Origin: Bacteroidales bacterium
GTDB lineage: Bacteria; Bacteroidota; Bacteroidia; Bacteroidales; UBA932
Direction: 5' to 3'
DNA: 64,000 nt
Assembly: GCA_017546585.1 (NCBI GenBank)
Contig: JAFYWC010000098.1
Location: forward strand, 360 to 64,359
In this document: piece by piece, positions 4,531 to 22,480 of the stretch
Layout: the number at the start of each line of letters is the position of its first letter
Numbering within the stretch: the first letter of the stretch is position 1
Position numbers and translations under genes: made by a program
Notes under the pieces: generated by a model
Databases searched by the model: none
Seen by the model: the letters and a program-made list of their open reading frames with translations, nothing else
Told to the model about the DNA's origin: nothing

Positions 4531-5852
4531 CACTAGTGTCCAATAAAATTTAAAACTTAAACTCAAATTGAAGTTGAACAGTCTCATCATCCGCATCCTC
4601 GATAGTTTCAGAGCCTTTGAAAAGGTCTCTGATGGAGGTCTTGTCGGTCAGGACTCTGCTCAGTACTCGGAGGACATTGAACGTTGTTCTTCCAAGCTGG
4701 CAGTCGTGCTCGACGATGGCCACGAGGCAGTATGTGATGACTGCAACATATATCTGTATTCTCACAGCGTTCTCGCTGGTTCCCCAAAAGGAGAGCACAC
4801 GAAGATGCTGTTTTATCCACCTGAAGAACAGTTCCACCTGCCATCTCTGCTTGTAGAGCATTGCAATATCCTTAGCCTTGATCGTAAAGTCATTAGTAAG
4901 GAATGTGAACGTCCTCTTCAGTTCAGGAGCATAGTAAACTATCCTCCTCAGCTCGGATGGGTATTTGGTTTTTGTCAACTGACCAGTCAGTCTTATGGTC
5001 TGATCAAGCAGCACATTGTCATCCCCATCCAACAGTTCATCTCCAGCCACAACTTCGTACTTGAGATGATCCTTCGCTCGGATGATAAACATAGAACCGA
5101 TGCTCTGGATTCTATACAATCTGGCAAGGTCATAGTATCCTTTGTCAAAGATATAGAACGCATTAGGCTCGTAAGGTATCTCATCCATTGCATTCACGTC
5201 ATGAAGTTTCGCTTCAGTAATGTGAATGTAGGTAGGAATCTGAGTGACCACATCAAACAAGGTGTGCACCTTGATTCCGCTCTTGGTTTTGCGGAAGTAT
5301 GCCCACTCGAACAGACTCATGCAGAGATCTATCGTCGTCGAATTGAACGCGTAGAACTTGCCATTGAGAACGAACGACCTTGTGATTCTCTTGCTCTGAG
5401 CAAGGTTGATCATATGGTAGGCAAACTCCTCAAATATCTTGTAATCTCGGTTGGCGTTAGCATAGGACAGATTGCTCAGCTTTATGTCACCGCTACCGAA
5501 ACCGAGATGGTAGCTCTTACTCTTGATGGCGTCAATGATTGCCGCAACTTCTCTGAGACTGTCACAGCCTGCGAGTTGTCCGAACATCATGACAAGAAGT
5601 TGATTCCAACAGGTGAAATGCTTCACCCACTTATCACCTTCGTATCTCTTTACGATACCATCAAAGACTCTTTTAGGAAGAAAACTAACGAGTTGACTGA
5701 ATATGTATTTGCCTGCATTCATGCTTGTCCGATCTAATGTCGGCAGCAAATATGCGAAATCAATTCAAATCGACACGCGGTGTTTTCTGTTGTATTTAAT
5801 TATATATTAATAAGTTACAAAGGTTTGTCAAAAAATCTTTTGGACACTAGTG
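4531..5852 (-). mobile_element. IS4-family insertion sequence
   Basis: Perfect 13-bp terminal inverted repeats CACTAGTGTCCAA (4531-4543) / TTGGACACTAGTG (5840-5852) enclosing the transposase; no target duplication visible. Confidence 0.9.
4550..5722 (-). CDS. IS4-family DDE transposase (DUF4372 N-terminus), first catalytic Asp replaced by Asn
   Basis: Likely start MNAGKYIFSQL (ATG 5722); motifs YAFNSTTIDL (family usually DSTTI), FDKGY and YKQRWQVELFF. Confidence 0.9.
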   Translation of the reverse strand: MNAGKYIFSQLVSFLPKRVFDGIVKRYEGDKWVKHFTCWNQLLVMMFGQLAGCDSLREVAAIIDAIKSKSYHLGFGSGDIKLSNLSYANANRDYKIFEEFAYHMINLAQSKRITRSFVLNGKFYAFNSTTIDLCMSLFEWAYFRKTKSGIKVHTLFDVVTQIPTYIHITEAKLHDVNAMDEIPYEPNAFYIFDKGYYDLARLYRIQSIGSMFIIRAKDHLKYEVVAGDELLDGDDNVLLDQTIRLTGQLTKTKYPSELRRIVYYAPELKRTFTFLTNDFTIKAKDIAMLYKQRWQVELFFRWIKQHLRVLSFWGTSENAVRIQIYVAVITYCLVAIVEHDCQLGRTTFNVLRVLSRVLTDKTSIRDLFKGSETIEDADDETVQLQFEFKF

Positions 5853-6287: not shown

Positions 6288-7315
6288 ATATACCATTAAA
6301 CTAAAATATAGTCAATCTATTACATAATTTAAGCAACTAATTTAACAACCTTTACATCGGTATAAGATACAATACCTATGGACTTACAGAACATATCAGC
6401 GAAGCGAGTGGATTCACTCGCTTTTCTTGTATTATAACGGTACACAGCCTCGTCAATGTACCTCTGAAGGTAGTCCTTGCTAACGAAATGATATGTACCA
6501 AAAACCATACGCTTGAAATGACCCCAAAAACCCTCAATGCTATTGGTTGTGATACCATCCTTGGAGAACTCCTTCTTGCCGTGCTCAATGACACTATGCT
6601 TCATTCCCGCTCCGTCAAGGCAAATGTATGAAGACAACTCGTCTGTGAAGAAATGAGAGTTTTCAGCACAGAACTGCTTGATGATTGGAAGCAAGGTGGA
6701 TGCTTTGGTATCGGTTACCTTGATAGCATGAACGAGACCATCACGCTGAACCATTCCGAAGATTGGAGTCTTAGTTTTGGTTGAACGACCCTGTGTACCC
6801 TCAGTCTTCTTAGACTGATGCTTGTTGGTTTCTCTACCACCAAGGTACATTTCGTCTAACTCAATCTCACCTTCAAGAGCAGGTGTATCGTACTGAGCGA
6901 AAAGGGTACGAACCTTCTGCAAGATGAACCACGCTGTTTTCTGCGTTACATCAAGGTCACGTGATAACTGGTGTGAAGGTATGCCCTTCTTGTGAGAAGA
7001 GATAAGGTACATCGCCATAAACCACTTTTGAAGTGGGAGTTTTGTATTGTGGAAGATTGTACCCACAAGACAAGAGAAACGCTTCTTGCAATCAGCACAT
7101 TTGAACTGATTGTCACCATTGGAGCATGCGTAAGTATGGGTGCATCCACAGAACGGACAAACCACGTTACCACCCCAACGCTGCTCAGTGATGAAATCAC
7201 GGCAACGCTTGTCAGAATTGAAATGATTGACGAGTGAAATGAGTGAATTGAAGTGGTTAAGCGTAAGTTTCATAGTAATCAGTAGGTTATCTATAATTAT
7301 ATACCAATAAACTAA
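6288..7315. repeat. 17-bp direct repeats (16/17) flanking the IS1595 transposase
   Basis: ATATACCATTAAACTAA (6288-6304) and ATATACCAATAAACTAA (7299-7315). Confidence 0.7.
6329..7273 (-). CDS. IS1595-family (ISXO2-like) transposase
   Basis: N-terminal Zn finger CPFC...CADC; IELDEMYLGG, FTDELSSY and TNSIEGFWGHFKR motifs intact. Confidence 0.95.
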   Translation of the reverse strand: MKLTLNHFNSLISLVNHFNSDKRCRDFITEQRWGGNVVCPFCGCTHTYACSNGDNQFKCADCKKRFSCLVGTIFHNTKLPLQKWFMAMYLISSHKKGIPSHQLSRDLDVTQKTAWFILQKVRTLFAQYDTPALEGEIELDEMYLGGRETNKHQSKKTEGTQGRSTKTKTPIFGMVQRDGLVHAIKVTDTKASTLLPIIKQFCAENSHFFTDELSSYICLDGAGMKHSVIEHGKKEFSKDGITTNSIEGFWGHFKRMVFGTYHFVSKDYLQRYIDEAVYRYNTRKASESTRFADMFCKSIGIVSYTDVKVVKLVA

Positions 7316-7413: not shown

Positions 7414-7824
7414 GTGGTCAATCTGCATGAAAAGCTTGTGGCTGAGCACTATCGCGGACAACGTCTTTTCAACGATGAAGTATGTCTAGATCTGGATAAA
7501 TATGAAAAGCTGGTTCATCAGAATCGGCAGAACTCATCTGTAGACTTTCTGGTCGCCCTGGAAAATGATTGGCTACTTCTTGTTGAGGCAAAACTTAAAG
7601 TTGTTTCCATCACGGCTAAATTGGCAAAGGAGATCATTGAGAAATATGATAACTCCCGCCAGCTTATTCGATGTGATTCATATGTACACGAAATCAATAG
7701 CCTTCCAATACTGCTTCGAGATACAGATTTTCAGCAGAACAGACGAAAGCTAATGACCTATCTGAATGGAAGTCCTGTCTATGCACCGATGAAAGTTAGC
7801 GAATTCAGGGAAAAATATTTTTAG
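7414..7824 (+). CDS. Hypothetical protein with a PD-(D/E)xK nuclease-like motif, possibly 5'-truncated
   Basis: SVDFLV...LLLVEAK motif; the frame is open from 7384 (TRISFPKNKC) but has no ATG, only GTG. Confidence 0.45.
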   Translation: MVNLHEKLVAEHYRGQRLFNDEVCLDLDKYEKLVHQNRQNSSVDFLVALENDWLLLVEAKLKVVSITAKLAKEIIEKYDNSRQLIRCDSYVHEINSLPILLRDTDFQQNRRKLMTYLNGSPVYAPMKVSEFREKYF

Positions 7825-8303: not shown

Positions 8304-8708
8304 TTAAGCAGCAAGAGCCAAACTTGGTGTTTCTCTTCGTGTGAGGCTGACCACATTTGCAGTGTGGATGTAGAAGAAGATCAGCATGATCTCTGTTGAC
8401 TTTATCCTCGTGGCTATCTTTCGCCGTCCGTAATGCTCCTTCTTAGTGCCGAACGAGTCTTCAATGGCTGTAGCTCTCACTTTGGCAAGTTCCTTCTTGG
8501 TAGCATTCTTCACCTCGTTCTTGCCTGTCCTACCTTTCTGAATGAAGGAGGTCTCAATACCATTCTCCTTGCAGAAAGTTCTGTTGCCGTTTCCGGAGTA
8601 GCTCTGGTCACCACCGATCTTTTTCGCTGGAACTCCTGTCAGCTTCTCAGGCAGAGATGCCCAATGCTTCAATCTTGTGCCCTCACTGAAGGTGGCAGAG
8701 TTTGGCAT
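8304..8708 (-). pseudogene. C-terminal remnant of an IS5-family transposase
   Basis: EGTRLKH...KKIGGDQSY...RATAIEDSFGTKKEHYG...IFFYIHTAN matches the tail of Bacteroidales IS5-type transposases; the N-terminal two-thirds are absent. Confidence 0.75.
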
Positions 8709-8921: not shown

Positions 8922-9037
8922 CAAATTGATATGGTTTGTTTAATCGGGCGTTTTAAAAGACAACTTTTTGAGGCGAGAGAATGAAGTCCGTAAACAGATC
9001 ACAGTGTGTTGAAAGAAATAATAAAGGAGATATAAAA

Positions 9038-9253
9038 ATGAAGAAACAGATGAAAAGAACTGTTTATGAAGCACCGGTCACCGAGCGCTTCAGCGTGGAG
9101 CTGGAGGGAGGTTTCATGTCGGCGTCGATAATGGAAGATACTAAGCATAGTAGTGGGGTGGAGACTACATCGCAGGGCTTTGAGGAACTCAGCGGAAATG
9201 CATGGAATGAGAATGGTAGCGCGAATGCAAACTCAAATATCAGTTGGGACTAA
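9038..9253 (+). CDS. Small YxxP-type peptide (71 aa) preceding a pilin gene
   Basis: MKKQMKRTVYEAPVTERFSVELEGGFMSAS...ISWD; ATG at 9038 after an A-rich leader; same pattern as 14808-14951. Confidence 0.7.
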   Translation: MKKQMKRTVYEAPVTERFSVELEGGFMSASIMEDTKHSSGVETTSQGFEELSGNAWNENGSANANSNISWD

Positions 9254-9276
9254 CATATAATCAGGGAAAAGTTATT

Positions 9277-11931
9277 ATGAAGAACATTTATAAATCAATT
9301 GCCCTGATTTGTATGGGGCTCGCAAGTGTTGCATGTGTCGAGGAGAACCTCGAACCGAACAACGGAAGGTATGACACCACTCCGGGTAATGATATTCAGT
9401 TCACTGCAATAGCGCAGATGGATAATATTGACACAAAGACTGTATATGGTGGCACTTCCGATACAGACAAGGATGGTAACTTGGATAAGATTGACATCAA
9501 CTGGGCTCAGGGTGACCGTATCCAGATCGCGTCTCTTGAGGCAGCTGGTGAGCAGAACGCTGAGTATGCAGTAGGCTTTGAAGAAAAGGGTGATAATTAC
9601 ACAGGTTCTCACTCTGCAACTTCGCTTAACAAGACTGGTGACGCCGCACTTCAGTGGTCTTCGTCAAATCACTATGAGTTCTATGCCATGTATCCATCTC
9701 CAGCTTCGTTAACCACAGCGGAGGAGCGTAAAAATACTGCTCTTACCATTACTGAATCTGAAAAGAAGATGACAGCTTGGATACCGGTGACGCAGTATAG
9801 TGAAAATCGCTCTACTCCAGGAACAGGAAGCCAGGTTATTCAGCCAAACATGAACTATGCGATCATGCATGCATATTCTGAGTATGACAAGGTTGATGCA
9901 AATGGCAAGGAGAATACAGAAGGCATATCTCTTCAGTTCGAGGCAGCTGTAACTGCGCTTCAGTTTGATATTACAGCAAATACTATTGAGCAGAATAGTA
10001 CGAATAGTTCGATCACAATCAAATCCCTTACCTTGAAGTCAGGGTCAGGAAGAGATATCGTTGGTAAATTCACCTATGACTTTTCTAATAAGACTTATGC
10101 TGTTGCGAATACTTCTACAGGATATAATCAGGCAACATTGTTTTTCGGTGAGGGCTACACTTTAATAGCAGGTCAAAGTCTTGATGTCACATTCTTTCTG
10201 CTTCCTCAGGACATTCCTGCAGGAGACTTAAGTTTGCAGATATGGTTCTCTATAGGTTCTCAGACGCAATCTGTTGTGCGTACTGCGACCATTAAAAATG
10301 CCATTCAAGCCCGAAAGAAATATCGATATAATGATATGCTGATGCCAGAACTCACTACAGATGTCGAGGGATCAAACTGGGGTTCTGCACTGGATAATCA
10401 GATTTATCTTACCCAGCTTTCTGTCCCTGTCGCTGGAAATGCCTTTTCGTCATATTACACGGGAGACTCTCAACAATATAATAAAGAGCAGGTATTGGAC
10501 TATAAGGCACTTTGGAATATAGGAGTTCGAGGATTTGAGTTTAAGACTGCTCAGGGATATACTCCAGCAAATAATTCATCGAATCGAAACTATAAGCGTG
10601 AGAATACCGTAGCCGAAGAGTACTTTGTTACCAACGGACAGGAAATGACAGGAGGACCGACGTTTGATACGGCGTTTACATATCTTGCATCGCAGCTCTT
10701 GAACCCTGCTTATGCACAGGAGTTTCTGGTTATAATTGCAACCTATCAATCATATACAGGATGTGGTGCGTATTCTCCTCAAGAATATGTGAATGACCTT
10801 GAGGCGTATTTCAGGGATAAAGGAAATATTACATTCACTACAGAAGATGGTAAATCAATAACTAAAAATGTCTGGAATGAGATGATAGTAAAACTATCCT
10901 CAAATTCCATTGTAGGTGACTTGAAGGGTAAGATTGCTGTAATCGTGCGCCCAGGAGATGATGAGTTCCTCGCCTATGCCGATCAAACACTTACATTACC
11001 AACAGATTCGAAGCTAATGTATGTAAACAACTGGGGAACTTCAGTTGACTGCTGGGATAGAAGGTTCCCTGGATACAATCGCCAGATGGTATTTGGTAGA
11101 GGATCTGCTGAAACATATGTCGAGAATGCTTTATATGCCGTTTCTTCTGATGATGAGAATTTGACAACCACATCTTCGAACACTGTTGCGTTTAAAGACA
11201 CATATCCTTCTGATAATTCTCATAATGATGAATTGTTCAAGTTCAATAACGGAACGTATTTTATTCAAGAGTTTGCACGAGTTTCTCCTAAAAATGATAA
11301 GCTCCAGAAAGGATTTTATTCTAATGTAAGTGATTACACAGGTCTCCTTAATCGTACATATCGTTACTTATGGGTGCGATGGCCAGAGTCTTATTCAGAA
11401 AAGACTAAAATGATTGATTATACCTTGGATAAATCAATGTCAACTATTGGTCAGACCACTTCGACTCCGTTGTTTATCAATTCATTAGCTGGTTATTATA
11501 TTACTGAAAAGCACCAATACTCATATTTGCCATATGCAGGCCAATATTCCATAGGAAGTTATGATTTTTCATGTAATAATGCAGGTATGGGTGGTGACAT
11601 TGCAGGACTTGCGGGAGACCTGAACTACTACCTTTATGATAAGCTCCTTAAAGCCGAGCAATATCATCAGCAGGGACCGCTTGGTCTTATTATTATGAAC
11701 TACATTGGTGCATCTGCAGATGATTTTGGAAAGTCAGAGTATTCTCAAGGTGAGACCTGGGCGTCGAATGCAGAGTTAGCTTCGGCGGCACTCCCTTACA
11801 TGATCCTGATGAATAACTTCAAGTTCCCTTTGACTCAGGCTCCTGCAGACCCAACTACTTTGGGTACAGTAACGGTGTCTGACTTCGACAACAGTTACCT
11901 CAACGGAGGTGAGGCGATAAGTTTCGAGTAG
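9277..11931 (+). CDS. Fimbrillin-family lipoprotein with a C-terminal PI-PLC-like TIM-barrel domain
   Basis: Start MKNIYK, lipobox SVAC, pilin motifs TKTVY...INWAQGDRI and YEFYAMYP; then WGSALDNQIYLTQLSVP...GVRGFEFK, resembling the start of the PI-PLC X-domain. Confidence 0.75.
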   Translation: MKNIYKSIALICMGLASVACVEENLEPNNGRYDTTPGNDIQFTAIAQMDNIDTKTVYGGTSDTDKDGNLDKIDINWAQGDRIQIASLEAAGEQNAEYAVGFEEKGDNYTGSHSATSLNKTGDAALQWSSSNHYEFYAMYPSPASLTTAEERKNTALTITESEKKMTAWIPVTQYSENRSTPGTGSQVIQPNMNYAIMHAYSEYDKVDANGKENTEGISLQFEAAVTALQFDITANTIEQNSTNSSITIKSLTLKSGSGRDIVGKFTYDFSNKTYAVANTSTGYNQATLFFGEGYTLIAGQSLDVTFFLLPQDIPAGDLSLQIWFSIGSQTQSVVRTATIKNAIQARKKYRYNDMLMPELTTDVEGSNWGSALDNQIYLTQLSVPVAGNAFSSYYTGDSQQYNKEQVLDYKALWNIGVRGFEFKTAQGYTPANNSSNRNYKRENTVAEEYFVTNGQEMTGGPTFDTAFTYLASQLLNPAYAQEFLVIIATYQSYTGCGAYSPQEYVNDLEAYFRDKGNITFTTEDGKSITKNVWNEMIVKLSSNSIVGDLKGKIAVIVRPGDDEFLAYADQTLTLPTDSKLMYVNNWGTSVDCWDRRFPGYNRQMVFGRGSAETYVENALYAVSSDDENLTTTSSNTVAFKDTYPSDNSHNDELFKFNNGTYFIQEFARVSPKNDKLQKGFYSNVSDYTGLLNRTYRYLWVRWPESYSEKTKMIDYTLDKSMSTIGQTTSTPLFINSLAGYYITEKHQYSYLPYAGQYSIGSYDFSCNNAGMGGDIAGLAGDLNYYLYDKLLKAEQYHQQGPLGLIIMNYIGASADDFGKSEYSQGETWASNAELASAALPYMILMNNFKFPLTQAPADPTTLGTVTVSDFDNSYLNGGEAISFE

Positions 11932-12062
11932 GGTGATTTAAGATAAAAGTGAAACGTAAGTCTTTTGACTTGAGGACTTAAAGAACAAAATTAATTATTG
12001 TGTGTGTTGAAGGATCCTTACATGGCGTGAGGATCCGGATGCACACACTTTGGATTATAAAT

Positions 12063-14786
12063 ATGAAACAGTTTAGATTCTTAATCTTTTTTATGGCGAT
12101 TGCGGCAGGGACTGCTGTGATCGGATGTACGGAGGAGATGGATGATCCGGCTCTGTACACTCAGACCATCAGGGCAGTGCTGAATGACGGGTCATTGGAG
12201 ACCCGTACCTGTGTCGCCGAGGGTGACAGCGGTATGGAAGGCATCATGTGGACATCCGGAGATGCCATTGGCGTATATACCGCTTCAGGTAAGGAGAACG
12301 CACAGTTCAAGACATCCATAACCTCTCCTGCCGGAGATGCCGACTTCACAGGCACCTTTACAGGAACTGCAGCTTACGCCTATTATCCTTACAGCGGCTC
12401 AAATGACGGCAGGAGTACCATCAGCGGCACTCTTCCGCTGACTCAGGAGTATTCATCTACTACCGGAGTTCTGCCATACGATTACAAATTAGGAAAGCCT
12501 AAGAGCGGTGCAAATAACCAATTTGCGTTTGAGCATCTGTTCCCGCTTCTTCGTTTCACCGTTGATGCGGAGGGAACTGCGCTTGAAGGCAAGAAACTGG
12601 AAAGTGTTACAGTGACATTTCCTTCTCAGATAAGCGGAGGTACGTTTTCAGTCCCTGTAAGTGGAGGGAATATTACTTGGAGTGCTACAGAGCAAGGTGA
12701 TGTGCTTACATTGAATTGGAGCGACAAGCCTGTGCTGAAGAAAGGCGAGACAGTTTTCGGATACCTTGCCTGTCCTCCTGTAAACGGTCTTTCCGGTAAG
12801 ACCATCAAGGTGACTGTCGTTACGGAAGAATATCAGGCAGAGTTCAGCGCGGCATTGAAAATCAGTGCTTTCGTCGCTAATACCGCATATACATTCCCTC
12901 TCAAGCTTGCAGCGTGGAAGAATGTGACAGATTCTGGTTATAAGGAAATTGACCGTATTGAGCCAGCAGAGGCTCCGGTTATTACGAAGCTTACATTCAC
13001 CCCTGAGAAGAACACCGGCAAGATCCTTTCAATGGAGCTTCATTATGATGAGAGTGGCGCTGACGGTCTTTATACCAAGACACGTAAGGCTACTGCGCCA
13101 TCATTCACTCCTGCAGACGGCAAGATAACAGGATGCATTCTCTATCTTAACAATCGAAACCTCGTACCGGATCTTGAGTATACCGAAGGTGCAACTGTTT
13201 CATACAGCGTGAACGGTGGTGACTTCGTGAACTGGAACGGTACCTCGACGATTGATTTCATCAAGGGTACGGTACTTCGCGTCACAAAGGGTGGCCTTTC
13301 GACAGACTATGTGTGTGAGTTCACTAATTCTGGACTTCCTGTGGTGGTAATCAACCAGAATGAGGGAAACACTAATTGGGAGCAGGTAGGCTTCAAAGTT
13401 CACTCTAAAGACACAAACTTCGACGACGTAATGAGAGAAGACGGTTTTGCTATATACAATGCAGACGGAACTTCTGCTCTAAAGAATAGTGACGGCGTAT
13501 TCGTTGATGGTCCCGTAAAGGCTGCGGCGCGTCTCCGTGGAAATACGACGCTCAATTACCCTAAGAAGCCGTTTGCCGTGAAGTTCGACAAGAAGCACAG
13601 CTTCAGCATTAATATCAGCAAGGCTGACGGTTCGAAAAGCATATTTGAGATGCCTGCCCACAAGCGCTGGGTCCTTCTTGCCAACTGGAAGGACAAGTCT
13701 CTGATGTGCAACCATGTAGCATTTGGTATAGCCAACACGTTCGTAAGCAAGTTCAAGAACAATCAGAATCCTGGCATGCTATGGAATCCCCATGGCGAGT
13801 TCGTTGAAGTCATCTATAATGGTGTCCATATCGGCAATTACTATCTTTGCGAGCAGATCAAGATCGACGAAGGCAGACTCAACATCAATCCCCCATATGA
13901 CGAGACCTCTGCTCTCACGGAGGAGGCCCTGGCCAAAATCGGAATTCTCATCGAGTGTGACGATGCATATGACGAGGGGGAAAACGGTCAGTTCATATCG
14001 AAGCATTATATTCCGATGATGCTGAAGGATGCCGGAGATGCCGGTAACGTGATCCTTAATCATGTGAAGACAAAGGTCACCAACATAGAGGACAATCTTC
14101 TTAAAAATACAAGCGCGGGATATACTGTAGCATATAAGTATATCGATATCTATTCTTTTGCAGATATGCTTTTGGTATATGAACTTGCAATGAACTCCGA
14201 GATGGCCCATCCGAAGAGTGCATACATGTACATCGACGGAGGCGGAAAGCTCTGCGCGGGCCCTGTATGGGACTTCGACTGGTCTTCGTTCCCGAACAAC
14301 GACCTGATCTACAAGAACTTCGATCGCTCGTGGGACAGGGACTACGCGCAGTCGTTGATGGCAACGAAAAGCCATAAGAATAAGCATTACTATAGCAACA
14401 GTTATCCATCTAAACTTATTTCTGACGTCCCATATTTGTGGTACCCAATGCTTGTAAAAGACCAGACATTCAAGGATGTATTGGCAGAGCGATGGAATGC
14501 GGTAAGCGGAGACCTCAAGACTTATGCGTCAGAAATAACCGCGACAGCAAAGAGGATTGCCGTTTCTTGGGAATATAACAACAGTATATGGCCGGCTTAT
14601 CATTCTACCAACAAACGCTCCGAGGTGAACGGATCATCGATTGCGTTCCGTGGCGACGAGTTGATGTCAAGCTGGCAGAAGGTATATGAAAATCTTTACA
14701 ATATATATATGACCAGACTTGAGAATATGGATACATTTGTAGGACTCGATAAAAACTGGCCTGAATGGACAATTTCCAAGAAATAA
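12063..14786 (+). CDS. Fimbrillin-family lipoprotein fused to a CotH kinase-like domain (paralog 1)
   Basis: Start MKQFRF, lipobox VIGC, ETRT...WTSGDAIGVY, YAYYPY; CotH motifs RGNTT...KKPFAVK, WVLLANWKD, GNYYLCEQIK and GPVWDFD. Confidence 0.85.
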   Translation: MKQFRFLIFFMAIAAGTAVIGCTEEMDDPALYTQTIRAVLNDGSLETRTCVAEGDSGMEGIMWTSGDAIGVYTASGKENAQFKTSITSPAGDADFTGTFTGTAAYAYYPYSGSNDGRSTISGTLPLTQEYSSTTGVLPYDYKLGKPKSGANNQFAFEHLFPLLRFTVDAEGTALEGKKLESVTVTFPSQISGGTFSVPVSGGNITWSATEQGDVLTLNWSDKPVLKKGETVFGYLACPPVNGLSGKTIKVTVVTEEYQAEFSAALKISAFVANTAYTFPLKLAAWKNVTDSGYKEIDRIEPAEAPVITKLTFTPEKNTGKILSMELHYDESGADGLYTKTRKATAPSFTPADGKITGCILYLNNRNLVPDLEYTEGATVSYSVNGGDFVNWNGTSTIDFIKGTVLRVTKGGLSTDYVCEFTNSGLPVVVINQNEGNTNWEQVGFKVHSKDTNFDDVMREDGFAIYNADGTSALKNSDGVFVDGPVKAAARLRGNTTLNYPKKPFAVKFDKKHSFSINISKADGSKSIFEMPAHKRWVLLANWKDKSLMCNHVAFGIANTFVSKFKNNQNPGMLWNPHGEFVEVIYNGVHIGNYYLCEQIKIDEGRLNINPPYDETSALTEEALAKIGILIECDDAYDEGENGQFISKHYIPMMLKDAGDAGNVILNHVKTKVTNIEDNLLKNTSAGYTVAYKYIDIYSFADMLLVYELAMNSEMAHPKSAYMYIDGGGKLCAGPVWDFDWSSFPNNDLIYKNFDRSWDRDYAQSLMATKSHKNKHYYSNSYPSKLISDVPYLWYPMLVKDQTFKDVLAERWNAVSGDLKTYASEITATAKRIAVSWEYNNSIWPAYHSTNKRSEVNGSSIAFRGDELMSSWQKVYENLYNIYMTRLENMDTFVGLDKNWPEWTISKK

Positions 14787-14807
14787 TTGTGTGTAAACTA
14801 TACTAAG

Positions 14808-14951
14808 ATGGAAAGAAATGTTTTTGAAACCCTCGGAGAGGGAATTTATGAAACTCCGTCAGTGAGTGTTGTGGAACTTGATCTTGAAGGCGTGCTTTGC
14901 GCAAGCGGCATCACCGAGGAGTGGGAAGAGGGCGTATTGCCTGAAGATTAA
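14808..14951 (+). CDS. Small YxxP-type peptide (47 aa, not in the ORF track)
   Basis: Hand translation MERNVFETLGEGIYETPSVSVVELDLEGVLCASGITEEWEEGVLPED*; fills the gap between CotH paralogs 1 and 2. Confidence 0.8.
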   Translation: MERNVFETLGEGIYETPSVSVVELDLEGVLCASGITEEWEEGVLPED

Positions 14952-14971: not shown

Positions 14972-17620
14972 ATGAGAAGGATATACTTGTATGCAACGGC
15001 GGCTGTTGCCGCTATTGCTGCCGTGTCGTGTGCCTTTGATGAGTACGACGACTATCAGAAGGAGGGTGCGACAGTGGTGTTCACTGCGTCCATTGGTGAG
15101 GAGGAAACTAAGGCTGAGCTCGGAACGAGCGAAAGCGGCAAGCCTCAGACTATGTGGACTGACGGTGACAAGATAACAATTCATAACGGTACAAAGGGTT
15201 TTGAGTTTGTGACCGAACTTGAGGAGGCGGCTCCGAGGGCAGATTTCACTTATGTCGGCAATGATTTCAGCGCTGACAATGGTGTGATTGCCGTTTACCC
15301 TTCGGGTGAATACGAGGCTGACCTCGCGGAGAGGACCGTAACTCTGAACATCCCGTCTGTGCAGACAGCGACCGAGGGTACATTCGACCCTGCTGCTGGA
15401 GTGCTTGCTGCTTATACCGAGAGCGGTAGCACTAATATGACCTTCAGGAATGCTGCGGCTCTCATCAAGTTCAGCGTTAAGACCGAGGGTGTCAAGAGCG
15501 TGGTGCTCAGCGGCCTTGGCAAAGAGGCTGTGTGCGGAGAGACCGTTGTGGCATTCGACGAGGATGGCGGCATTGTATCCGTCGCTCCGAAGGCGGATGG
15601 TGCAGCAGGTACTGTCGTTGAGCTCACAGCTGCAGGAAGCGGCAAGCTCGCTACTGGAAAGACTTACTATATGGCTGTTGCTCCTGGTTCGTTCCCGAAA
15701 GGTTTCACAGTATATGTCAAATACAGTGCCGACGGCGAGATGCATATGGTGAAGGGCTATACAAAGCCGTATGATCTTGCAAGGAACTTCATACTTAATC
15801 TTGGTGAGTTCACCGTGCGTGAGCTTCCTGTGATCAGTTCGCTGTCATTCACTGCGGCGGCCAATTCCGGTAAGATTCTTTCAAAGGAGCTTTACTATGA
15901 CCCGAACGGCAGCGGCGGCACGTGGACAAAGTACAAGGATGCTAAGGATCCAGTAATGACCGTCACTGACGGAAAGATCAGCGGCACGATACTATACTTG
16001 AACGACCGCAATCTTGTGCCTTCTGTTACATATACCGAGGGTGCGGTGCTTTCCTACAGTGTTGCGGGAGGGGACTTCACGAAGTGGGACGGTACATCTG
16101 CCATCGACTTCAGCACCGGAACTGTTCTCCGTGTGGCGAAGGACGGTATCTTCAACGACTATGTCTGCGAAATCACCAATTCGGGCCTTCCAGTGGTGGT
16201 CATCAACCAGCCTGGCGGTGACGTGAACTGGGCGCAGGTGGGTACTTCCGTATGGTCAAAGGACACTGACTTTGACAATGTTACTCCGGGAACCTTTGCC
16301 GTCTACAATGCTGACGGAACGTCAGCCCTGACTGACAAGGCCGATGCTCCTACAGGAGCGTCAGTTGCGGCTGCAGCCAGACTTCGTGGAAACACATCGT
16401 TGGACTTCCCTAAGAAGCCTTTCGCTGTGAAGCTTGACAGCAAGTCGGGTGTCCTGGGCATGAAGCCGCACAAGAGATGGGTTCTCCTTGCAAACTGGAA
16501 GGACAAGTCTCTTATGCGTAACCACGTGGCGTTCGGAATCGCTCAGAAGTTTACTGAGAAGTTCAAGAACAATGCTAATCCTGGAATTCCTTGGAATGTT
16601 CACGGTGAGTTTGTTGAACTGGTCTATAATGGTGTTCACGTAGGTAACTATTACCTCTGCGAGCAGATCAAGGTTGATGGAAACAGACTTGACATCAAGG
16701 ATCCTTACGATTCCAAGGACTATCCTGCCATAACAACAGCAGACTTGGACAACTTTGGCTATCTTATCGAGTGTGACGATAACTATGATGAGTCGGAGAA
16801 CGGTCAGTTCCTGTCGAAGCACTTCATCCCTGTGATGCTGAAGGATGCAGGTGACGCCGGAAAGGTGATCCTGAACTACGTGAAGACAAAGGTCACCAAC
16901 ATAGAGGACAATCTCTACAACGGAAACTACTCTGCTGCATACGATGATATTGACATCTATTCGTTCGCGGACATGCTTCTGATCTATGAGTTCGCGATGA
17001 ACTCGGAAATGGGCCATCCGAAGAGCGCATACATGTACATCGACGGAGGCGGTAAGCTCTGCGCGGGCCCTGTGTGGGACTTCGACTGGACTTCGTTCCC
17101 GAACAACACCCTGATCAAGCAGAACTTCGATTCGTCGTGGGACAGGTTGTACACTCAGTCGTTGATGGATACAGACAGCCATGAGAACCTTCATTACAGG
17201 TTCAAGGCAGGATGGCTCAGCAGTGCCACATATCCTTCTTCTGTAAAGAAGAACGATGTGCCGTACCTGTGGTATCCGATGCTGGTGAAGGATGCTACGT
17301 TCAAGAATGTCCTTGCAGAACGCTGGTCTGCAATCAGCGGAGAACTTTCGGATTATGCGAAAGAACTTATCAAGGATACAGCTGAAGAGATCGCTCTCTC
17401 ATGGGAATACAACAACAGCATCTGGCCTGCATACTACAGCTCGAACTGTGACCGTCAGGCGGCATTCAGCGGCGGATTCTGCGGTGACGAGCTGATGACC
17501 GACTTCGAGGATATCTATAAAAATCTCTATGCTGTGTATATGGAAAGGCTGTCGGGAATGAATACGTTCGTGGGCAACAAGACCTGGCCATCGTGGAGCA
17601 TAAAGACTGCAAGCAAATAA
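14972..17620 (+). CDS. Fimbrillin-family lipoprotein fused to a CotH kinase-like domain (paralog 2)
   Basis: Lipobox AVSC, ETKAEL...WTDGDKI; same CotH motifs as paralog 1. Confidence 0.85.
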   Translation: MRRIYLYATAAVAAIAAVSCAFDEYDDYQKEGATVVFTASIGEEETKAELGTSESGKPQTMWTDGDKITIHNGTKGFEFVTELEEAAPRADFTYVGNDFSADNGVIAVYPSGEYEADLAERTVTLNIPSVQTATEGTFDPAAGVLAAYTESGSTNMTFRNAAALIKFSVKTEGVKSVVLSGLGKEAVCGETVVAFDEDGGIVSVAPKADGAAGTVVELTAAGSGKLATGKTYYMAVAPGSFPKGFTVYVKYSADGEMHMVKGYTKPYDLARNFILNLGEFTVRELPVISSLSFTAAANSGKILSKELYYDPNGSGGTWTKYKDAKDPVMTVTDGKISGTILYLNDRNLVPSVTYTEGAVLSYSVAGGDFTKWDGTSAIDFSTGTVLRVAKDGIFNDYVCEITNSGLPVVVINQPGGDVNWAQVGTSVWSKDTDFDNVTPGTFAVYNADGTSALTDKADAPTGASVAAAARLRGNTSLDFPKKPFAVKLDSKSGVLGMKPHKRWVLLANWKDKSLMRNHVAFGIAQKFTEKFKNNANPGIPWNVHGEFVELVYNGVHVGNYYLCEQIKVDGNRLDIKDPYDSKDYPAITTADLDNFGYLIECDDNYDESENGQFLSKHFIPVMLKDAGDAGKVILNYVKTKVTNIEDNLYNGNYSAAYDDIDIYSFADMLLIYEFAMNSEMGHPKSAYMYIDGGGKLCAGPVWDFDWTSFPNNTLIKQNFDSSWDRLYTQSLMDTDSHENLHYRFKAGWLSSATYPSSVKKNDVPYLWYPMLVKDATFKNVLAERWSAISGELSDYAKELIKDTAEEIALSWEYNNSIWPAYYSSNCDRQAAFSGGFCGDELMTDFEDIYKNLYAVYMERLSGMNTFVGNKTWPSWSIKTASK

Positions 17621-17661: not shown

Positions 17662-20196
17662 ATGAACAAAAAAACTATTCTCGCAGCTCTTGCCGTATTC
17701 AGCTTCGGCATAGCCTGCACCAATTCAGAGCCAGAAGTTGAGGAGACAGTATCACAGAAGATCACTGCTTCGCTGGTGGATAACGGTTCTGCTGCAAAGT
17801 GGGCCAAGACAGATGTGATCGGTGTCTATACTGATAAGTCTGAGAACAATGTGAAGTACACAACTTCTGCAGCGGGTACTTCAGTGGCGTTCACTGCCTC
17901 GACTGAGGTGAAGGGTGCGCCTGCATATGCGTACTATCCTTATAGCAGTGACAATGCTTCAAAGAAAGCTACTGGTCTTGAGGGAGTGCTTGCTCAGGAT
18001 CAGACCGCTGGTGCTGCTGATTACCGTTACGGTACTCAGACAGGTACTGACAGCAACGGTGATGCGACATTCCAGTTCCGTAGTATGTTCTCTGTTGTTG
18101 ATTTCGCTGCAGATCTTTCTGGCAGTGCACTCAATGGACAGAATGTAGTAAGCTACATCTGTAAGGTTACACGCAATGGAGCAGAGGTTCCTGTTGTAGG
18201 TTCGTTTACTTTCAACGCTGCTGACGGCTCTTACAGTGTTAAATCTTCATATAATGAGTTCATCACTGCAGGTCGCGCGGTTGTGTTCCCTACTGTAAAG
18301 GCTGGTGACATTCTTGAGGTTACCGTTTGTACAGCTGAGGCTTCTGCAACTGTTACTCTCCCTGTTGAGGGAGATGTGGCAGCTGGTGGTTACTACCAGG
18401 TCACTGTTCCAGTTGTAGATGCAGAGGTTGATGACGAACCAGTGGTTGTTGGTACTCCAGAACTTACTGCTCTTAGCTTTACTGCAGCTGCTAACCCAGG
18501 AAAGATTCTCGCGAAGGAGCTTTATTATGATGCAAAGGGCAGCAATGGCATATGGACTAAGAATAGAGCAGTAGAGGCTCAGGTGATGACTATTGCCGAT
18601 GGAGAGATCAGCGGATGTATCCCTTACCTTCATAACCGTGCTCTTGTTCCTTCATTCGAGTACACTAAAGGCGCTTCTATCCAGTATAGCTATGACGGCG
18701 GTTCGAACTTCTCTGAATGGGACGGTGTTTCAGCTATCGAGTTCTATGCTGGTACAGTGATCCGTGTTGCAGCAGGCGAGAAGTATTCAGACTATGTCTG
18801 CAACATCACCAACACAGGTCTTCCTGTAGTTGTAATTGATCAGCCAAACGGTGACACTTCTTGGCCACAGGTTGGTGAGTATGTTTGGTCTAAGGATACA
18901 GACTTTGATAATGTTACTCCTGGTGTGATTACAGTGTACAATGCAGATGGTACTGTTAACCTCGCTGCTGCGACAGCGATGACTCGCCTCCGCGGAAATA
19001 CCTCAAAGAACTTCCCTAAGAAGCCTTTCGCTGTTAAGCTTGACAAGAAGGCGTCTGTTTTGGGAATGGCTAAACACAAGAGATGGGTGCTTCTTGCAAA
19101 CTGGAAGGATAAGTCTCTTATGCGTAATCACGTAGCTTTCGGAATCGCTCAGAAGTTTACTGAGAAGTTCAAGAATAACGCTAACCCTGGTATTCCTTGG
19201 AATGTGCACGGTGAGTTCGTGGAACTCGTGTACAATGGTGTTCACGTAGGTAACTACTATCTCTGTGAGCAGATCAAGATTGATGAGAATCGCCTTGACA
19301 TCAAGGATGAGTATGATGGAGGTTCTACTTCTGACCTCAATGCATATGGTTACCTTATGGAGTGCGATGACTACTATGATGAGGCTAGCAAGTTTGTGAC
19401 ACGTCACTATATTCCTTTCCAGTTCAAGGATGATACTGACGCCGGCAATGTTATCGTTAACTATGTGAAGAATAAGGTGCAGGGTATCGAGGATAACCTC
19501 TATAACGGAAAGTACTCTACAGCTTACAATGATTTCGATATCTATTCGTTCGCAGACTATCTCCTCATCAATGAGCTTGCGATGAACTCTGAGATCGGAC
19601 ACCCACGAAGCTTCTATGTGTATATGAACGGTACAGGTAAGCTTTGTGCAGGTCCTGTATGGGATTTCGACTGGCAGGCATTCCCTATCAATGACGGCGT
19701 GAAGAAGCTTGACTCATCTTGGGATAGAAGCTACACTCAGTCACTTATGGCAACTGCGAGCCACAAGAACAAGCATTACAGATACCAGCCACTTTTCGGT
19801 AGCGGTATGCCATCAGCTCCTAAGACAGACGATGTGCCGTATATGTGGTATCCAATGCTCGTGAAGGATGCGACTTTCAAGAATGTACTTGCTGAGCGTT
19901 GGTCTGCAATCAGCGGTGAGCTTTCAGCAATCGCGTATGACCTCGTAGTGGAGACTGGTAAGCAGATCGCTCTCTCGTGGGAGTACAACAATGCGATGTG
20001 GCCAGCATATTACAGCAGCAACTGTGACCGTCAGGCAGCATTCAGCGGCGGATTCTGCGGCGATGAGCTCCTTACTAACTTCGAGGATATCTATGAGGGC
20101 CTTTATGGAGCATACATTGACCGTCTCAACGGAATGGACTCTTTCGTAACTAAGAAGAACTGGCCTTCGTGGTCAATCTCAGTTAAGAGATGGTAA
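17662..20196 (+). CDS. Fimbrillin-family lipoprotein fused to a CotH kinase-like domain (paralog 3)
   Basis: Lipobox GIAC, WAKTDVIGVY, YAYYPY; same CotH motifs; lacks the TK/TR segment. Confidence 0.85.
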   Translation: MNKKTILAALAVFSFGIACTNSEPEVEETVSQKITASLVDNGSAAKWAKTDVIGVYTDKSENNVKYTTSAAGTSVAFTASTEVKGAPAYAYYPYSSDNASKKATGLEGVLAQDQTAGAADYRYGTQTGTDSNGDATFQFRSMFSVVDFAADLSGSALNGQNVVSYICKVTRNGAEVPVVGSFTFNAADGSYSVKSSYNEFITAGRAVVFPTVKAGDILEVTVCTAEASATVTLPVEGDVAAGGYYQVTVPVVDAEVDDEPVVVGTPELTALSFTAAANPGKILAKELYYDAKGSNGIWTKNRAVEAQVMTIADGEISGCIPYLHNRALVPSFEYTKGASIQYSYDGGSNFSEWDGVSAIEFYAGTVIRVAAGEKYSDYVCNITNTGLPVVVIDQPNGDTSWPQVGEYVWSKDTDFDNVTPGVITVYNADGTVNLAAATAMTRLRGNTSKNFPKKPFAVKLDKKASVLGMAKHKRWVLLANWKDKSLMRNHVAFGIAQKFTEKFKNNANPGIPWNVHGEFVELVYNGVHVGNYYLCEQIKIDENRLDIKDEYDGGSTSDLNAYGYLMECDDYYDEASKFVTRHYIPFQFKDDTDAGNVIVNYVKNKVQGIEDNLYNGKYSTAYNDFDIYSFADYLLINELAMNSEIGHPRSFYVYMNGTGKLCAGPVWDFDWQAFPINDGVKKLDSSWDRSYTQSLMATASHKNKHYRYQPLFGSGMPSAPKTDDVPYMWYPMLVKDATFKNVLAERWSAISGELSAIAYDLVVETGKQIALSWEYNNAMWPAYYSSNCDRQAAFSGGFCGDELLTNFEDIYEGLYGAYIDRLNGMDSFVTKKNWPSWSISVKRW

Positions 20197-20297: not shown

Positions 20298-21218
20298 ATG
20301 TTTGGACGTATTGTGACATATGTGATCGCGGGCCTGCTGCTGGTGTCCTGCAACCCTGGGGTTTTCATTGAGCCTCTGGATGTTGCGAGGGCGGAGTATG
20401 ACGTACCGTTCTATGGCGGTACAGTGGAGATCGATGTCACGCACGGCGACTGGGAACTGGATAGGGTAGCGTACGACAATATCGATCTGGGGTTTGTGGA
20501 GGATGCGGACGGTGTGCTGTGGCACGAGGACAATTTCATACGTCTGCATATCTCACGCCCACAGCCTTCTAAGCTGTGGGTCACTATTGACGATTCTGTG
20601 AATCCTGAGGCTGGTCTGATCGAGATTTTCATTAAGAACGATTATGAGGCCGAGGTTGTCACCGTCAATGTGTCTCCTTGCGGTGGCTATGCTTTCTCAC
20701 ATATAGAATATGGTGATGTTCAGATGCTTACACCTTCTGATGCATATGAGGAGGGCTGGCGCAAAAGCGTGAAGAACAGCACTTCTTCGCCGCTGAACCA
20801 GATCTTCGATGTGTTCGAAGGGGGAGCGTCCAGGACAGTGTTTTTCCCTGCTGCGACGGTGGTGTCTGCGGATATGCCGTATGCGGCGTGGTATGATACG
20901 TTGATGCAGTATCTGGACGGTGAGTCCTTTGAGGTGCCGGTGCCGGATGCGCTGCCGGTGGATGGCTCGCTTACCTTCTCTGGCGAGGAGGTGGAGTTCG
21001 GATATTCGGCTATGGAAATCCCTATGCCGGAGCTCGATGAGCAGGCTACGCTGGCTCTTGCACCGGGCGTGAACGAGGTGAGGATGATGTGGGGATATGT
21101 GGAGTATAAGGTGCCGTATGTTCTTACGTTTTCACATTCTGGAGGCGGTCGTGATCTGACTGTCCGCGGTGAGTTCACGAGCAAGGCATACAATGGAAAA
21201 TGGAGGGCTGAACTATGA
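20298..21218 (+). CDS. Hypothetical lipoprotein
   Basis: Start MFGRIV, lipobox LVSC; TATCTTTG at 20286-20293 immediately upstream. Confidence 0.75.
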   Translation: MFGRIVTYVIAGLLLVSCNPGVFIEPLDVARAEYDVPFYGGTVEIDVTHGDWELDRVAYDNIDLGFVEDADGVLWHEDNFIRLHISRPQPSKLWVTIDDSVNPEAGLIEIFIKNDYEAEVVTVNVSPCGGYAFSHIEYGDVQMLTPSDAYEEGWRKSVKNSTSSPLNQIFDVFEGGASRTVFFPAATVVSADMPYAAWYDTLMQYLDGESFEVPVPDALPVDGSLTFSGEEVEFGYSAMEIPMPELDEQATLALAPGVNEVRMMWGYVEYKVPYVLTFSHSGGGRDLTVRGEFTSKAYNGKWRAEL

Positions 21219-22480
21219 TGAGGTTGCGCTGTATCCTTTCCGTTCTGCTTTGCTGTGTGTCTTGTTATGTTGCTAAGGCTCAGGTAGATAGCACGACCGT
21301 CGTACATCGTGTGAGTTTCGATTACAGGCCTGCAGTGCCGACTCAGCATCACGATTTCTTGAGAGGCGGAGACGGCGCTTCAAAGCCGTTGACAGCCTCT
21401 GCGTCTGTGCATCTGCAGTACTCGTTCCAGTTTCCGGAGGGTTCGCGTCTGAGGGAGATGATGCCGACAGCATATCAGGGTATCGGAGGTGCGAAATATA
21501 CGTTTTTCAATCATAAGGATTTCGGAACTCCTGCGGCATTGTATGTGTTCCAGGGTGCTCAGATCGCACAGTTGGCCCGCAATCTGTCGCTTGATTATGA
21601 GTGGAATTTCGGAGTGTCTGCGGGTTGGCATCAGAATCTTGTAGTCAGCACGAAAGTGAATGCGTACATCAATCTCGGACTGATGCTTTCGTGGCGTCCG
21701 GCTATGAGTTGGCGCATTTTCGCCGGTCTGGATATGACGCATTTTTCCAACGGTGATACGACTCTCCCGAATGTGGGAATGAACACCATCGGTGCACGTG
21801 TCGGTGTGCTCAGGATGTTCGAATCTGACGTGCCTTCAAAGCTTGCGGATCTTCCTGATTGGGGCTTCTGCGGCGACCTCGGAAGATATGCTGAGAGGGG
21901 TCTTGGCGGGTCGGTTGAGAGTGGTAATGACAGTGCTCGCCAGAGCGCCGGGATGTCTGGTGCAAAGCCTTGGTATACAGATGTTTGGAATCGAACTGTC
22001 ATTGATGTGATTCTTTGTGGAAACACCAATGCAGAGACTCTGAATTACAAGGATAGGGAGTATAAATTGGATGGAAAATTTGCTGTGGTAGCTTTTCATC
22101 TGAATCCGCTTTATCGTGTCACCCGCAATTTCCTTGTGGGTCCTTCCATCGACGTCCAGTATAACGAGGGAGTGAACTTGGTCTATAACGTGGCCGGTGT
22201 CAATCCTGTCACTGACGTCATCAAGTTCCATAGGCCTCCGCTCGCTCAACAGCTCGCTGCCGGCCTTTCCCTCCGCGCCGAGCTTCAGGCTCCGGTCTTC
22301 GCGGTCAACATCGGTATCGGCCACAATGTCATCTACAAGGGTCCCGAGCTCGGCGGCTTCTATTATCTCGCCGTCCTCAAAACCTTCGTCGCGCACGACC
22401 TCTTCCTCCACGTCGGTCTCAAGATCTGCGACACGGAATCCTCCAACAACCTCCTCCTCGGCCTCGGCTATCGCTTCTAG
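21215..22480 (+). CDS. Acyloxyacyl hydrolase / PagL-like outer-membrane beta-barrel
   Basis: Signal peptide, amphipathic strands, THFSNG...PNVGMN PagL-type motif, terminal GLGYRF. Confidence 0.75.
   Translation: MMRLRCILSVLLCCVSCYVAKAQVDSTTVVHRVSFDYRPAVPTQHHDFLRGGDGASKPLTASASVHLQYSFQFPEGSRLREMMPTAYQGIGGAKYTFFNHKDFGTPAALYVFQGAQIAQLARNLSLDYEWNFGVSAGWHQNLVVSTKVNAYINLGLMLSWRPAMSWRIFAGLDMTHFSNGDTTLPNVGMNTIGARVGVLRMFESDVPSKLADLPDWGFCGDLGRYAERGLGGSVESGNDSARQSAGMSGAKPWYTDVWNRTVIDVILCGNTNAETLNYKDREYKLDGKFAVVAFHLNPLYRVTRNFLVGPSIDVQYNEGVNLVYNVAGVNPVTDVIKFHRPPLAQQLAAGLSLRAELQAPVFAVNIGIGHNVIYKGPELGGFYYLAVLKTFVAHDLFLHVGLKICDTESSNNLLLGLGYRF

Follow-up and report, generated by a model that had tools for sequence, protein, structure and literature searches.

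Two peptide genes ahead of pilin-like lipoprotein genes

The window analysed here is a stretch of 64,000 nucleotides from a Bacteroidales bacterium (lineage UBA932; GenBank assembly GCA_017546585.1, contig JAFYWC010000098.1, positions 360 to 64,359 of the forward strand). It carries two small genes, pep1 and pep2, within a cassette of large lipoprotein genes. The features of this region are as follows, with positions counted from the start of the window.

8995..9115 (+): 5' UTR plus the first ~26 codons of pep1, conserved at the nucleotide level
9038..9253 (+): pep1, 71 aa, candidate LppA-like precursor peptide
9277..11931 (+): X889, surface-type lipoprotein with a type-V-pilin-like N-terminal half and a head of predicted PI-PLC fold; the conserved partner gene of pep1-type peptides
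12060..14786 (+): CotH908, lipoprotein with a fimbrillin-like N-terminus and a CotH kinase-like domain
14808..14951 (+): pep2, 47 aa, short-tailed member of the same peptide family (Y-E-T-P ... E-G-V-L-C-A-S-G ... E-E-W)
14972..17620 (+): CotH882, lipoprotein with a pilin-like N-terminus and a CotH domain; the partner gene of pep2
17662..20196 (+): CotH844, lipoprotein with Mfa_like_1 and CotH domains
20298..22480 (+): two genes after the cassette, possibly associated with it, coding for a 306 aa protein without a family and a 421 aa protein with a PagL-like outer-membrane beta-barrel

The observation behind the original prediction, that two small YxxP peptides with acidic Trp-containing tails are each placed directly before a pilin gene, was confirmed with one qualification: the downstream proteins are lipoproteins whose N-terminal half is type-V-pilin-like and is fused to a large enzyme-like head. 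Translation of pep1 is taken from the ATG at 9038 (an in-frame ATG at 8981 would give 90 aa) and that of pep2 from the ATG at 14808. Each gene ends 20-23 nt before the ATG of a lipoprotein gene (9277 and 14972), and neither product has a hydrophobic signal segment. The putative leader of pep1 comprises about aa 1-30 (MKKQMKRTVYEAPVTERFSVELEGGFMSAS), while its tail is acidic, rich in Ser/Thr/Asn/Gly, and ends with W-D. AF2 predicts the peptide to be disordered, as expected for a leader plus core. For pep1, 296 homologs of 60-75 aa were found, and their N-terminal 31 aa are nearly invariant. For pep2, 8 close homologs were found, and the gene is present at the same position in all nine CotH cassettes compared.

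The motif shared by the two sequences alone is weak (8/26 identities, ungapped), but it is real at the family level. Profile-profile comparison of the pep1 and pep2 families gave an E-value of 6.9e-5 and a probability of 63% over 22 columns. A joint profile identified 427 representative clusters (50% identity) at E<=1e-3, all of them small; two long proteins which were also hit are repeat artefacts (T-cell-receptor-like and Calx-like repeats). The family thus delineated is a large, unannotated Bacteroidales family of signal-less peptides of 35-90 aa. All 366 collected members keep Y, P, and E at fixed spacing (Y-x-x-P-x9-E), followed by a small-residue x-A-S motif, with the conserved Ser 6-7 residues after the invariant Glu, and by a variable tail. 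The acidic Trp-containing tail is also a family trait: the tails have 25% D/E and 16% Ser/Thr, and 81% have an aromatic residue in the last three positions, mostly W-E or W-D. In the Prevotella subfamily, however, the tail carries conserved blocks. In pep2, the conserved codons vary synonymously, which shows selection on the protein. Sequence searches with the peptides against Pfam, NCBIfam, PADLOC, and PDB assigned no family. The only hit, obtained with three family members, was to the leader part of the paeninodin-family lasso precursor model (PadeA), at 16 bits and below the 27-bit cut-off.

A DNA alignment of nine loci showed that the 8995..9115 block is conserved across loci whose downstream genes share only 20-40% protein identity. 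Codon identity at same-residue sites is 0.83 in this block, against 0.49 in the pep1 tail, 0.59 in pep2, and 0.41 in the downstream gene X. No significant RNA fold (z -0.6) and no Rfam match were found. The boundary between conserved and divergent sequence falls inside pep1, the tail of which diverges together with the next gene X. Similarly, pep2 identity between loci tracks the identity of CotH882.

In 36 of 44 loci, a pilin-like lipoprotein gene starts within about 60 nt downstream of the peptide gene, and an X889 homolog follows the peptide in all 15 loci examined for it. A lipobox is present in 27 of 28 downstream genes examined (in X889 it is followed by an acidic stretch), and Pfam Mfa_like_1 matched 9 of 30. 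The N-terminal profile, which covers CotH882, hits the pilin-like PDB entries 3t2l, 3sy6, and 3ufi. The AF2 model of X889, compared using Foldseek, matched BF1858, BACUNI_00621, Mfa4, and the FimA prepilin over its N-terminal half and bacterial PI-PLC (TM 0.70) over its C-terminal half; Mfa2 was also matched. The two-domain prepilin fold is thus found for the downstream genes, and a conserved T-K/R-T motif after the first strand is compatible with a cleavage site, although polymerisation by strand exchange remains an inference and no stalk or anchor pilin was identified in the cassette. Pfam CotH matched CotH908 (1.3e-27), CotH882 (5e-25), and CotH844 (1.1e-28). Mfa_like_1 matched CotH844 (1.9e-10) and, in the genome scan, CotH908. 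The 421 aa protein matched Pfam PagL (2.1e-7). The same gene pair lies next to the cassette in another locus (L009), and a weak PagL-like gene lies beside the peptide locus on contig C73.

Linkage and co-occurrence with putative peptide-modification genes

It had been stated that no RiPP enzymes are present, but this is true only for the window. Homologs of a PqqD-type recognition protein (RRE), an HprK-like kinase, and an S24/S26 peptidase sit together on another contig of the same genome, here called C77. They are 33-37% identical to the peptide-linked proteins described below, with E-values down to 5e-53. None of the enzymes is encoded in the window or within 10 kb of any of the nine CotH-type cassettes. 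A nucleotidyltransferase of family PF14907 was not found in this genome (95.6% complete), and the best match to the pump is only 26% identical.

In Prevotella and Phocaeicola relatives, the peptide lies within 1-8 kb of a PqqD-type protein, an HprK-like kinase, an S24/S26 peptidase, a PF14907 nucleotidyltransferase, and an MsbA-like exporter. Five of six loci of this type read GT4 - Bac_transf - PqqD - PF14907 - HprK-like kinase (called in four of the five) - Wza - Wzc - peptide - X homolog - pilin-like - OmpA, followed by an S24 peptidase in three and an ABC pump in three. In one further genome (G553), a family peptide is the first gene of a peptide - kinase - S24 - PqqD - PF14907 - ABC operon, and in another (G605) everything lies within about 10 kb. 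The best solved relatives of the linked PqqD protein are the lasso B1 recognition proteins TbiB1 (3e-4) and TfuB1. The linked pump is MsbA/HlyB-like and has no peptidase domain.

Close orthologs of the kinase occur in about 20 of 371 sampled Bacteroidales genomes (about 5%), but in 9 of 11 peptide-bearing ones, which come from 6 families (Fisher p about 3e-11, uncorrected for kinship). Two peptide-bearing genomes (G556, G588) lack the kinase. Co-occurrence with PqqD was uninformative, as PqqD is found in 30% of the genomes in the phylum sample and one peptide-bearing genome (G227) has no PqqD match. PF14907 showed only weak enrichment (7 of 12 against 34%, p 0.07).

Possible relationship to linear polyphosphorylated peptides

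The gene set found in these relatives matches, in gene content, that of the "linear polyphosphorylated peptide" (LPP) pathway, represented by lppA-K-B-S-D-N of Paenibacillus alginolyticus DSM5050 (Popov et al., Nat Commun 2026, PMC13381572). Both comprise a small precursor with a conserved YxxP leader and a variable C-terminus, a discrete PqqD-type RRE, an HprK-like kinase, a signal-peptidase-I-like leader peptidase, an MsbA-like pump, and a PF14907-type NTP transferase. The family members, at 35-90 aa, lie within the 35-200 aa expected of an LppA-like precursor. Both lack a cyclase, and LPP clusters, too, are often embedded in polysaccharide loci. In Paenibacillus, this gene set has been shown experimentally to phosphorylate and cleave its precursor. 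There are differences, however. LPPs are reported to be restricted to Bacillota, while the system described here is from Bacteroidales. The leader consensus beyond YxxP does not match the published YxxPxVLxHQxIxFETxxS residue for residue. The Bacteroidales precursor genes are fused into operons of type-V-pilin-like lipoproteins, a context not mentioned in that paper (the terms 'pilin', 'fimbri', and 'Bacteroid' do not occur in it). In the genome under study, moreover, the enzymes are unlinked to the peptides.

We thus consider it the most likely reading, with a probability of about 0.55, that pep1 and pep2 are LppA-like precursors of a Bacteroidales version of this cyclase-free, lasso-related pathway, served in trans by the proteins encoded on C77. 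In this view, the N-terminal leader (Lys-rich start, Y-x-x-P, then an amphipathic acidic beta-strand ending in the invariant E) would dock by strand addition onto the PqqD-type protein. The HprK-like kinase would phosphorylate a serine, candidates being the conserved Ser of the x-A-S motif or tail serines. The soluble S24/S26 signal-peptidase-like enzyme would remove the leader near the x-A-S site, and an MsbA-like ABC pump, of uncertain identity in this genome, would export the acidic core. Family membership, gene linkage, and genome co-occurrence rest on the data presented here, while binding, phosphorylation, cleavage, and export are inferred from the Bacillota system. The conserved blocks in the Prevotella tails look less like a freely variable core. 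The coupling to pilin-like, enzyme-headed surface lipoproteins is not explained by this reading; the simplest guess is that the exported phosphopeptide acts together with those surface proteins.

A more far-reaching possibility, which we consider unlikely but not excluded, is that the exported, phosphorylated cores are not free products but are loaded onto, or processed by, the lipoproteins encoded right behind them, whose heads (PI-PLC-like phosphodiesterase, CotH kinase, metallophosphoesterase) all handle phosphate. Peptide and pilin would then form one surface organelle, whose variable part (peptide tail plus partner X) diversifies as a unit behind a recombination-prone conserved 5' block.

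In paeninodin-type phosphorylated lasso peptide clusters (PadeA, B1, B2, C, D, K), the leader is recognised by a PqqD-like B1 protein through strand addition (PMC5067487), as is inferred for the peptides described here, and these clusters share with the linked loci an HprK-like tailoring kinase, a nucleotidyltransferase, and an ABC pump. They differ in having a macrolactam synthetase and a B2 cysteine protease, neither of which appears in any annotated peptide locus, where an S24/S26 peptidase takes their place. Type V pilus (Fim/Mfa) gene clusters of Bacteroidales share the FimA/Mfa prepilin fold, the lipobox, and the T-K/R-T site near the N-terminus of the downstream proteins, and the fim cluster of P. 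gingivalis is headed by a small gene, fimX. The pilin-like domains described here, however, carry large enzyme-like heads. A paper on the phase-variable Mfa/EPS locus of P. vulgatus does not describe these genes. A double-glycine (C39 pump) leader, which would end in GG, GA or GS, was also considered, but only the first Gly is conserved (66%), the next position is variable, and the linked pump has no C39 peptidase domain.

Alternative readings and significance

The original prediction, which proposed strand-donor, chaperone or assembly peptides or else CotH substrates, is partly supported. The peptides are a dedicated, uncharacterised accessory of pilin-like gene sets, and YxxP is very probably a genuine RRE-binding motif, but neither the strand-donor or chaperone idea nor the CotH-substrate idea is supported.

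Among the alternatives, the one which survives best, although unlikely, is a cytoplasmic micro-protein which leads the operon and, without being modified, controls expression or export of the lipoprotein set. By analogy of position only, it would resemble fimX, the loss of which is reported to reduce fimA transcription (PMC3436787), or the small trans-acting regulators at the head of Bacteroides capsule loci. There is one peptide per (sub)operon rather than one per pilin gene, it is always the first gene, 9-57 nt upstream, and the head of pep1 is invariant while the tail diverges with X. This reading does not explain the YxxP motif, the recurrent linkage and co-occurrence with PqqD/kinase/S24/ABC genes, or the peptide-headed operon in G553, and no DNA- or RNA-binding feature is present.

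A strand-donor, groove-capping or chaperone peptide for the pilin-like domain of the next gene is doubtful, and conceivable only if the peptide is exported by the linked ABC pump. It is favoured by the tight adjacency in 36 of 44 loci, by the alternating hydrophobic/acidic strand-like stretch of the leader, and by the assembly of type V pili by strand exchange. However, the peptide is predicted to be disordered, there is no signal peptide, and there is no one-to-one pairing: this genome has 13 Mfa_like_1 matches but 4 peptides, and CotH908 and CotH844 have no peptide of their own. A resemblance of the peptide to the pilins' own N-terminal strand looked suggestive by eye, but profile-profile comparison was null (probability 0.6%). 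In type V pili, every vacated groove is filled by the neighbouring subunit, so no free peptide is needed, and the strand-like stretch lies in the part predicted to be removed as leader.

Similarly doubtful is a role mainly in cis, as upstream reading frames or an RNA/DNA element that sets translation, transcription or recombination of the downstream genes, the peptide product being secondary. The nucleotide conservation of the pep1 head far beyond what the protein requires, the short spacing to the next start, and the conservation boundary inside pep1 speak in its favour. On the other hand, pep2 and the wider family are conserved as protein with free synonymous change, no significant fold or Rfam family was found, and a cis element would not keep Y-x-x-P-x9-E across the class.

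Least likely, despite the Ser/Thr content of the tails, the three adjacent CotH genes, and the YxxP leader shared with lasso precursors, are substrates of the CotH kinases, since the family also occurs before PI-PLC-like, metallophosphoesterase, and Fib_succ-headed lipoproteins and in loci without CotH, and the CotH proteins are exported lipoproteins while the peptides have no signal, and true lasso precursors, since only 27- and 67-residue Asn_synthase fragments match in the genome, no cyclase or B2 protease gene appears in the annotated loci, and there is neither a conserved Thr at -2 nor a consistent register with a core starting G/A/S/C and a ring acceptor (Asp/Glu) at position 7-9.

The LPP pathway was described in 2026 as a Bacillota-only system of unknown biological role. 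The present analysis adds several hundred unannotated small genes to Bacteroidales annotation. If our reading is right, it supplies the missing substrates for a kinase/peptidase/PqqD cassette found in about 5-15% of the sampled Bacteroidales genomes and extends the pathway to a second phylum. It would also tie the pathway to a concrete cell-surface context, pilin-like lipoproteins and polysaccharide export, which would make the question of what these phosphopeptides are for testable in cultivable gut species.

The two small ORFs and their family

The original prediction had described two small peptide genes, each placed directly before a pilin gene, and this observation was confirmed and could be generalised. 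Both ORFs are encoded on the + strand and neither codes for a signal peptide. The relevant features are:
9038-9253 (+): pep1, 71 aa; ends 23 nt before the ATG of the next gene
9277-11931: 884-aa lipoprotein gene, here termed X889 (X for its counterparts in other loci)
14808-14951 (+): pep2, 47 aa; starts 21 nt after the stop of a CotH gene and ends 20 nt before the next one
14972-17620: CotH gene following pep2

On their own, the two peptides are only weakly alike, with 8 identities in 26 ungapped positions, but the resemblance becomes real once relatives are added. For pep1, 296 homologs of 60-75 aa were found, which have a nearly invariant 31-residue head and a variable acidic tail. For pep2, there are 8 close homologs, and more distant ones sit at the same position in related loci. 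The two profiles match each other with an E-value of 6.9e-5. A joint profile finds 427 representative clusters at E<=1e-3 in 1.84 billion proteins, all of which are 35-90 aa apart from two repeat artefacts. In all 366 collected members, Y, P, and E keep the spacing Y-x-x-P-x9-E. This is followed by G (66%), a hydrophobic pair, a small-residue x-A-S motif, and a tail with 25% acidic and 16% Ser/Thr residues, which in most cases ends in an aromatic plus acidic pair. In pep2, the conserved codons differ synonymously between loci, so that selection is on the protein. No Pfam or NCBIfam model covers the family, and every named member is annotated as "hypothetical protein," including those from Phocaeicola coprophilus and Prevotella.

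Gene neighborhoods and the downstream lipoproteins

The genome under study has four family members, each of which lies 19-29 nt upstream of a lipoprotein gene with a fimbrillin-like N-terminus. Nine independent cassettes from ruminant-gut Bacteroidales all have the order pep1, X, one or two CotH or pilin-like genes, pep2, and one to three more, while their flanks are unrelated. When all loci with enough downstream sequence are counted, 36 of 44 peptides are followed within about 60 nt by such a lipoprotein gene.

The N-termini of the downstream proteins are type-V-pilin-like. Of these, 9 of 30 reach Pfam Mfa_like_1, and their profile hits the Bacteroides pilin-like structures 3t2l, 3sy6, and 3ufi. 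The AlphaFold model of X889 matches BF1858, Mfa4, FimA prepilin, and Mfa2 in its first half, and bacterial PI-PLC (TM 0.70) in its second half. X889 is thus predicted to be a two-part lipoprotein with a type-V-pilin-like stalk and a PI-PLC-fold head. However, the family consensus around the usual catalytic "PGTHDS" motif reads "IPGTxNSFS," and this copy reads "VPVAGNAFS"; the head may therefore not be a standard phospholipase. Other heads are CotH, a calcineurin-like phosphoesterase, and a Fib_succ domain, so that the peptides are not tied to CotH. They are also not a general pilin requirement, because this genome has 13 Mfa_like_1 matches and only four peptides. Another enzyme-headed pilin-like lipoprotein in the window (Mfa_like_1 plus a GDSL-lipase-like domain) has no family peptide in front of it.

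Further features surround the pep1 cassette:
226-2142 (-): the lipoprotein with Mfa_like_1 and GDSL-lipase-like domains
4550-5749 (-): transposase gene, DDE_Tnp_1 with DUF4372
6329-7273 (-): transposase gene, 314-aa zinc-finger type
7414-7824 (+): 136-aa ORF
8304-8708 (-): transposase fragment, DDE_Tnp_1_2
20298-22480: genes for a 306-aa protein with no family and a 421-aa PagL-like beta-barrel protein

The two transposase genes and the transposase fragment break the window just upstream of pep1 and probably cut the cassette off from its original upstream genes. The original neighborhood of the cassette may therefore have been lost. The 136-aa ORF has a close homolog upstream of the cassette in an unrelated metagenome locus (L001, 5741-6109) and gives weak hits to two candidate defence-system models (PDC-M04B, HEC-02B). 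The 306-aa and PagL-like proteins, which follow the cassette here, also lie next to it, inverted, in a yak-cecum genome (locus L009, 6634-8828), and a weak PagL-like gene neighbors the peptide locus on contig C73.

The 5' UTR and the first ~26 codons of pep1 (8995-9115) are almost identical in DNA across nine loci whose X proteins share only 20%-40% identity. Codon identity is 0.83 in this block, compared to 0.41-0.59 elsewhere. RNA folding gave no significant fold and an Rfam search gave no match. The block could be a recombination anchor for swapping the module of pep1 tail plus X, or an RNA-level control site. On one goat-cecum contig (JAFQAR010000043.1), two complete cassettes (loci L007 and L010) lie tail to tail about 25 kb apart, and their conserved pep1 heads form long inverted repeats that could allow inversion between them.

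Linked enzymes in relatives and their counterparts in this genome

The window itself contains no peptide-modifying enzyme. The picture is different in pep1-type relatives from Phocaeicola coprophilus, Prevotella, and others. Five of six loci have the order GT4, Bac_transf, PqqD, PF14907 nucleotidyltransferase, HprK/PEPCK-like P-loop protein of about 300 aa (called in four of the five), Wza, Wzc, peptide, X homolog, pilin-like or CotH gene, and OmpA. An S24 peptidase follows in three and an MsbA/HlyB-like ABC pump in three. The sixth locus is cut by an insertion element. The protein after the peptide is a true homolog of X889 (E-value 5e-50), and the pair pep1-X is therefore conserved across the order.

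In one genome (G553), a family peptide is the first gene of an operon with the order peptide, kinase, S24 peptidase, PqqD, PF14907, and ABC pump. This genome carries two family peptides 12 kb apart (contig C105, locus L053, 5055-5201 and 16843-16986), of which one heads the enzyme operon while the other has no intact gene behind it. In another genome (G605), all of these genes lie within about 10 kb of the peptide. The closest solved relatives of the linked PqqD protein are the lasso-peptide recognition proteins TbiB1 and TfuB1.

In the genome under study, homologs of the PqqD protein, the S24/S26 peptidase, and the kinase-like protein sit together on a 7-kb contig (C77, locus L027, 3848-6770). 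They are 33%-37% identical to the linked ones, with E-values down to 5e-53. The three genes are clustered but on mixed strands, with a mannose-1-phosphate guanylyltransferase gene between them, and the contig ends 250 nt after the kinase gene. PF14907, Wza, and Wzc were not found in this genome.

The family is sparse. It was found in 4 of 400 other genomes sampled across the phylum (one of the four hits looks false), in 11 of 400 across the order, and in 2 of 3 of the same genus. Close orthologs of the kinase (E<=1e-30) occur in about 20 of 371 sampled Bacteroidales genomes, but in 9 of the 11 peptide-bearing genomes tested, which come from six families (Fisher p about 3e-11, a value which is inflated by kinship). 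Two peptide-bearing genomes lack the kinase, and one lacks PqqD. The link is therefore strong but not absolute.

Proposed relation to linear polyphosphorylated peptides

Popov et al. (2026) describe "linear polyphosphorylated peptides" in Bacillota. The components are a precursor of 35-200 aa with a conserved YxxP leader and a variable C-terminus, a discrete recognition protein, an HprK-like kinase that polyphosphorylates Ser3 of the core, a signal-peptidase-I-like leader peptidase that needs the recognition protein, an MsbA-like pump, and an NTP transferase. There is no cyclase, and the clusters are often inside capsule loci. This is the gene set found here in the linked loci of relatives. 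The paper calls the family restricted to Bacillota and does not mention pilins or Bacteroidota. We have taken the name and the experimental precedent from that paper.

In the mechanism that we propose, the leader would bind the PqqD protein, the kinase would phosphorylate a serine, the soluble S24/S26 peptidase would remove the leader near the small-residue x-A-S site, and a pump would export the acidic core. Our data establish gene content, linkage, co-occurrence, and the motif and nothing beyond these, so that binding, phosphorylation, leader cleavage, and export are each inferred. The peptide alone is predicted to be disordered, which fits this reading. One observation bears on the coupling to pilin-like lipoproteins. 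Between cassettes whose 3' halves are 80%-96% identical, X and the pep1 tail are both near background identity (about 0.4), while pep2 tracks its own downstream gene. Each peptide therefore travels or diverges with its neighbor.

The functional interpretation in the original prediction was partly right. Its proposal of a donor strand was rejected because there is no pairing rule between peptides and pilins, the peptides show no similarity to the pilin strand, and type V assembly does not need such a strand. Its alternative, that the peptides are CotH substrates, was rejected because the heads vary and the compartments differ. A lasso precursor was rejected because no cyclase was found, and a double-glycine leader because neither the motif nor the pump type fits.

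We thus consider it the best reading, with a probability of about 0.55, that these peptides are LppA-like precursors (i.e., resembling the Bacillota precursor) of a Bacteroidales, pilin-linked variant of a pathway known only from Bacillota. What sets the peptides described here apart is mainly their consistent, as yet unexplained coupling to enzyme-headed pilin-like surface proteins.
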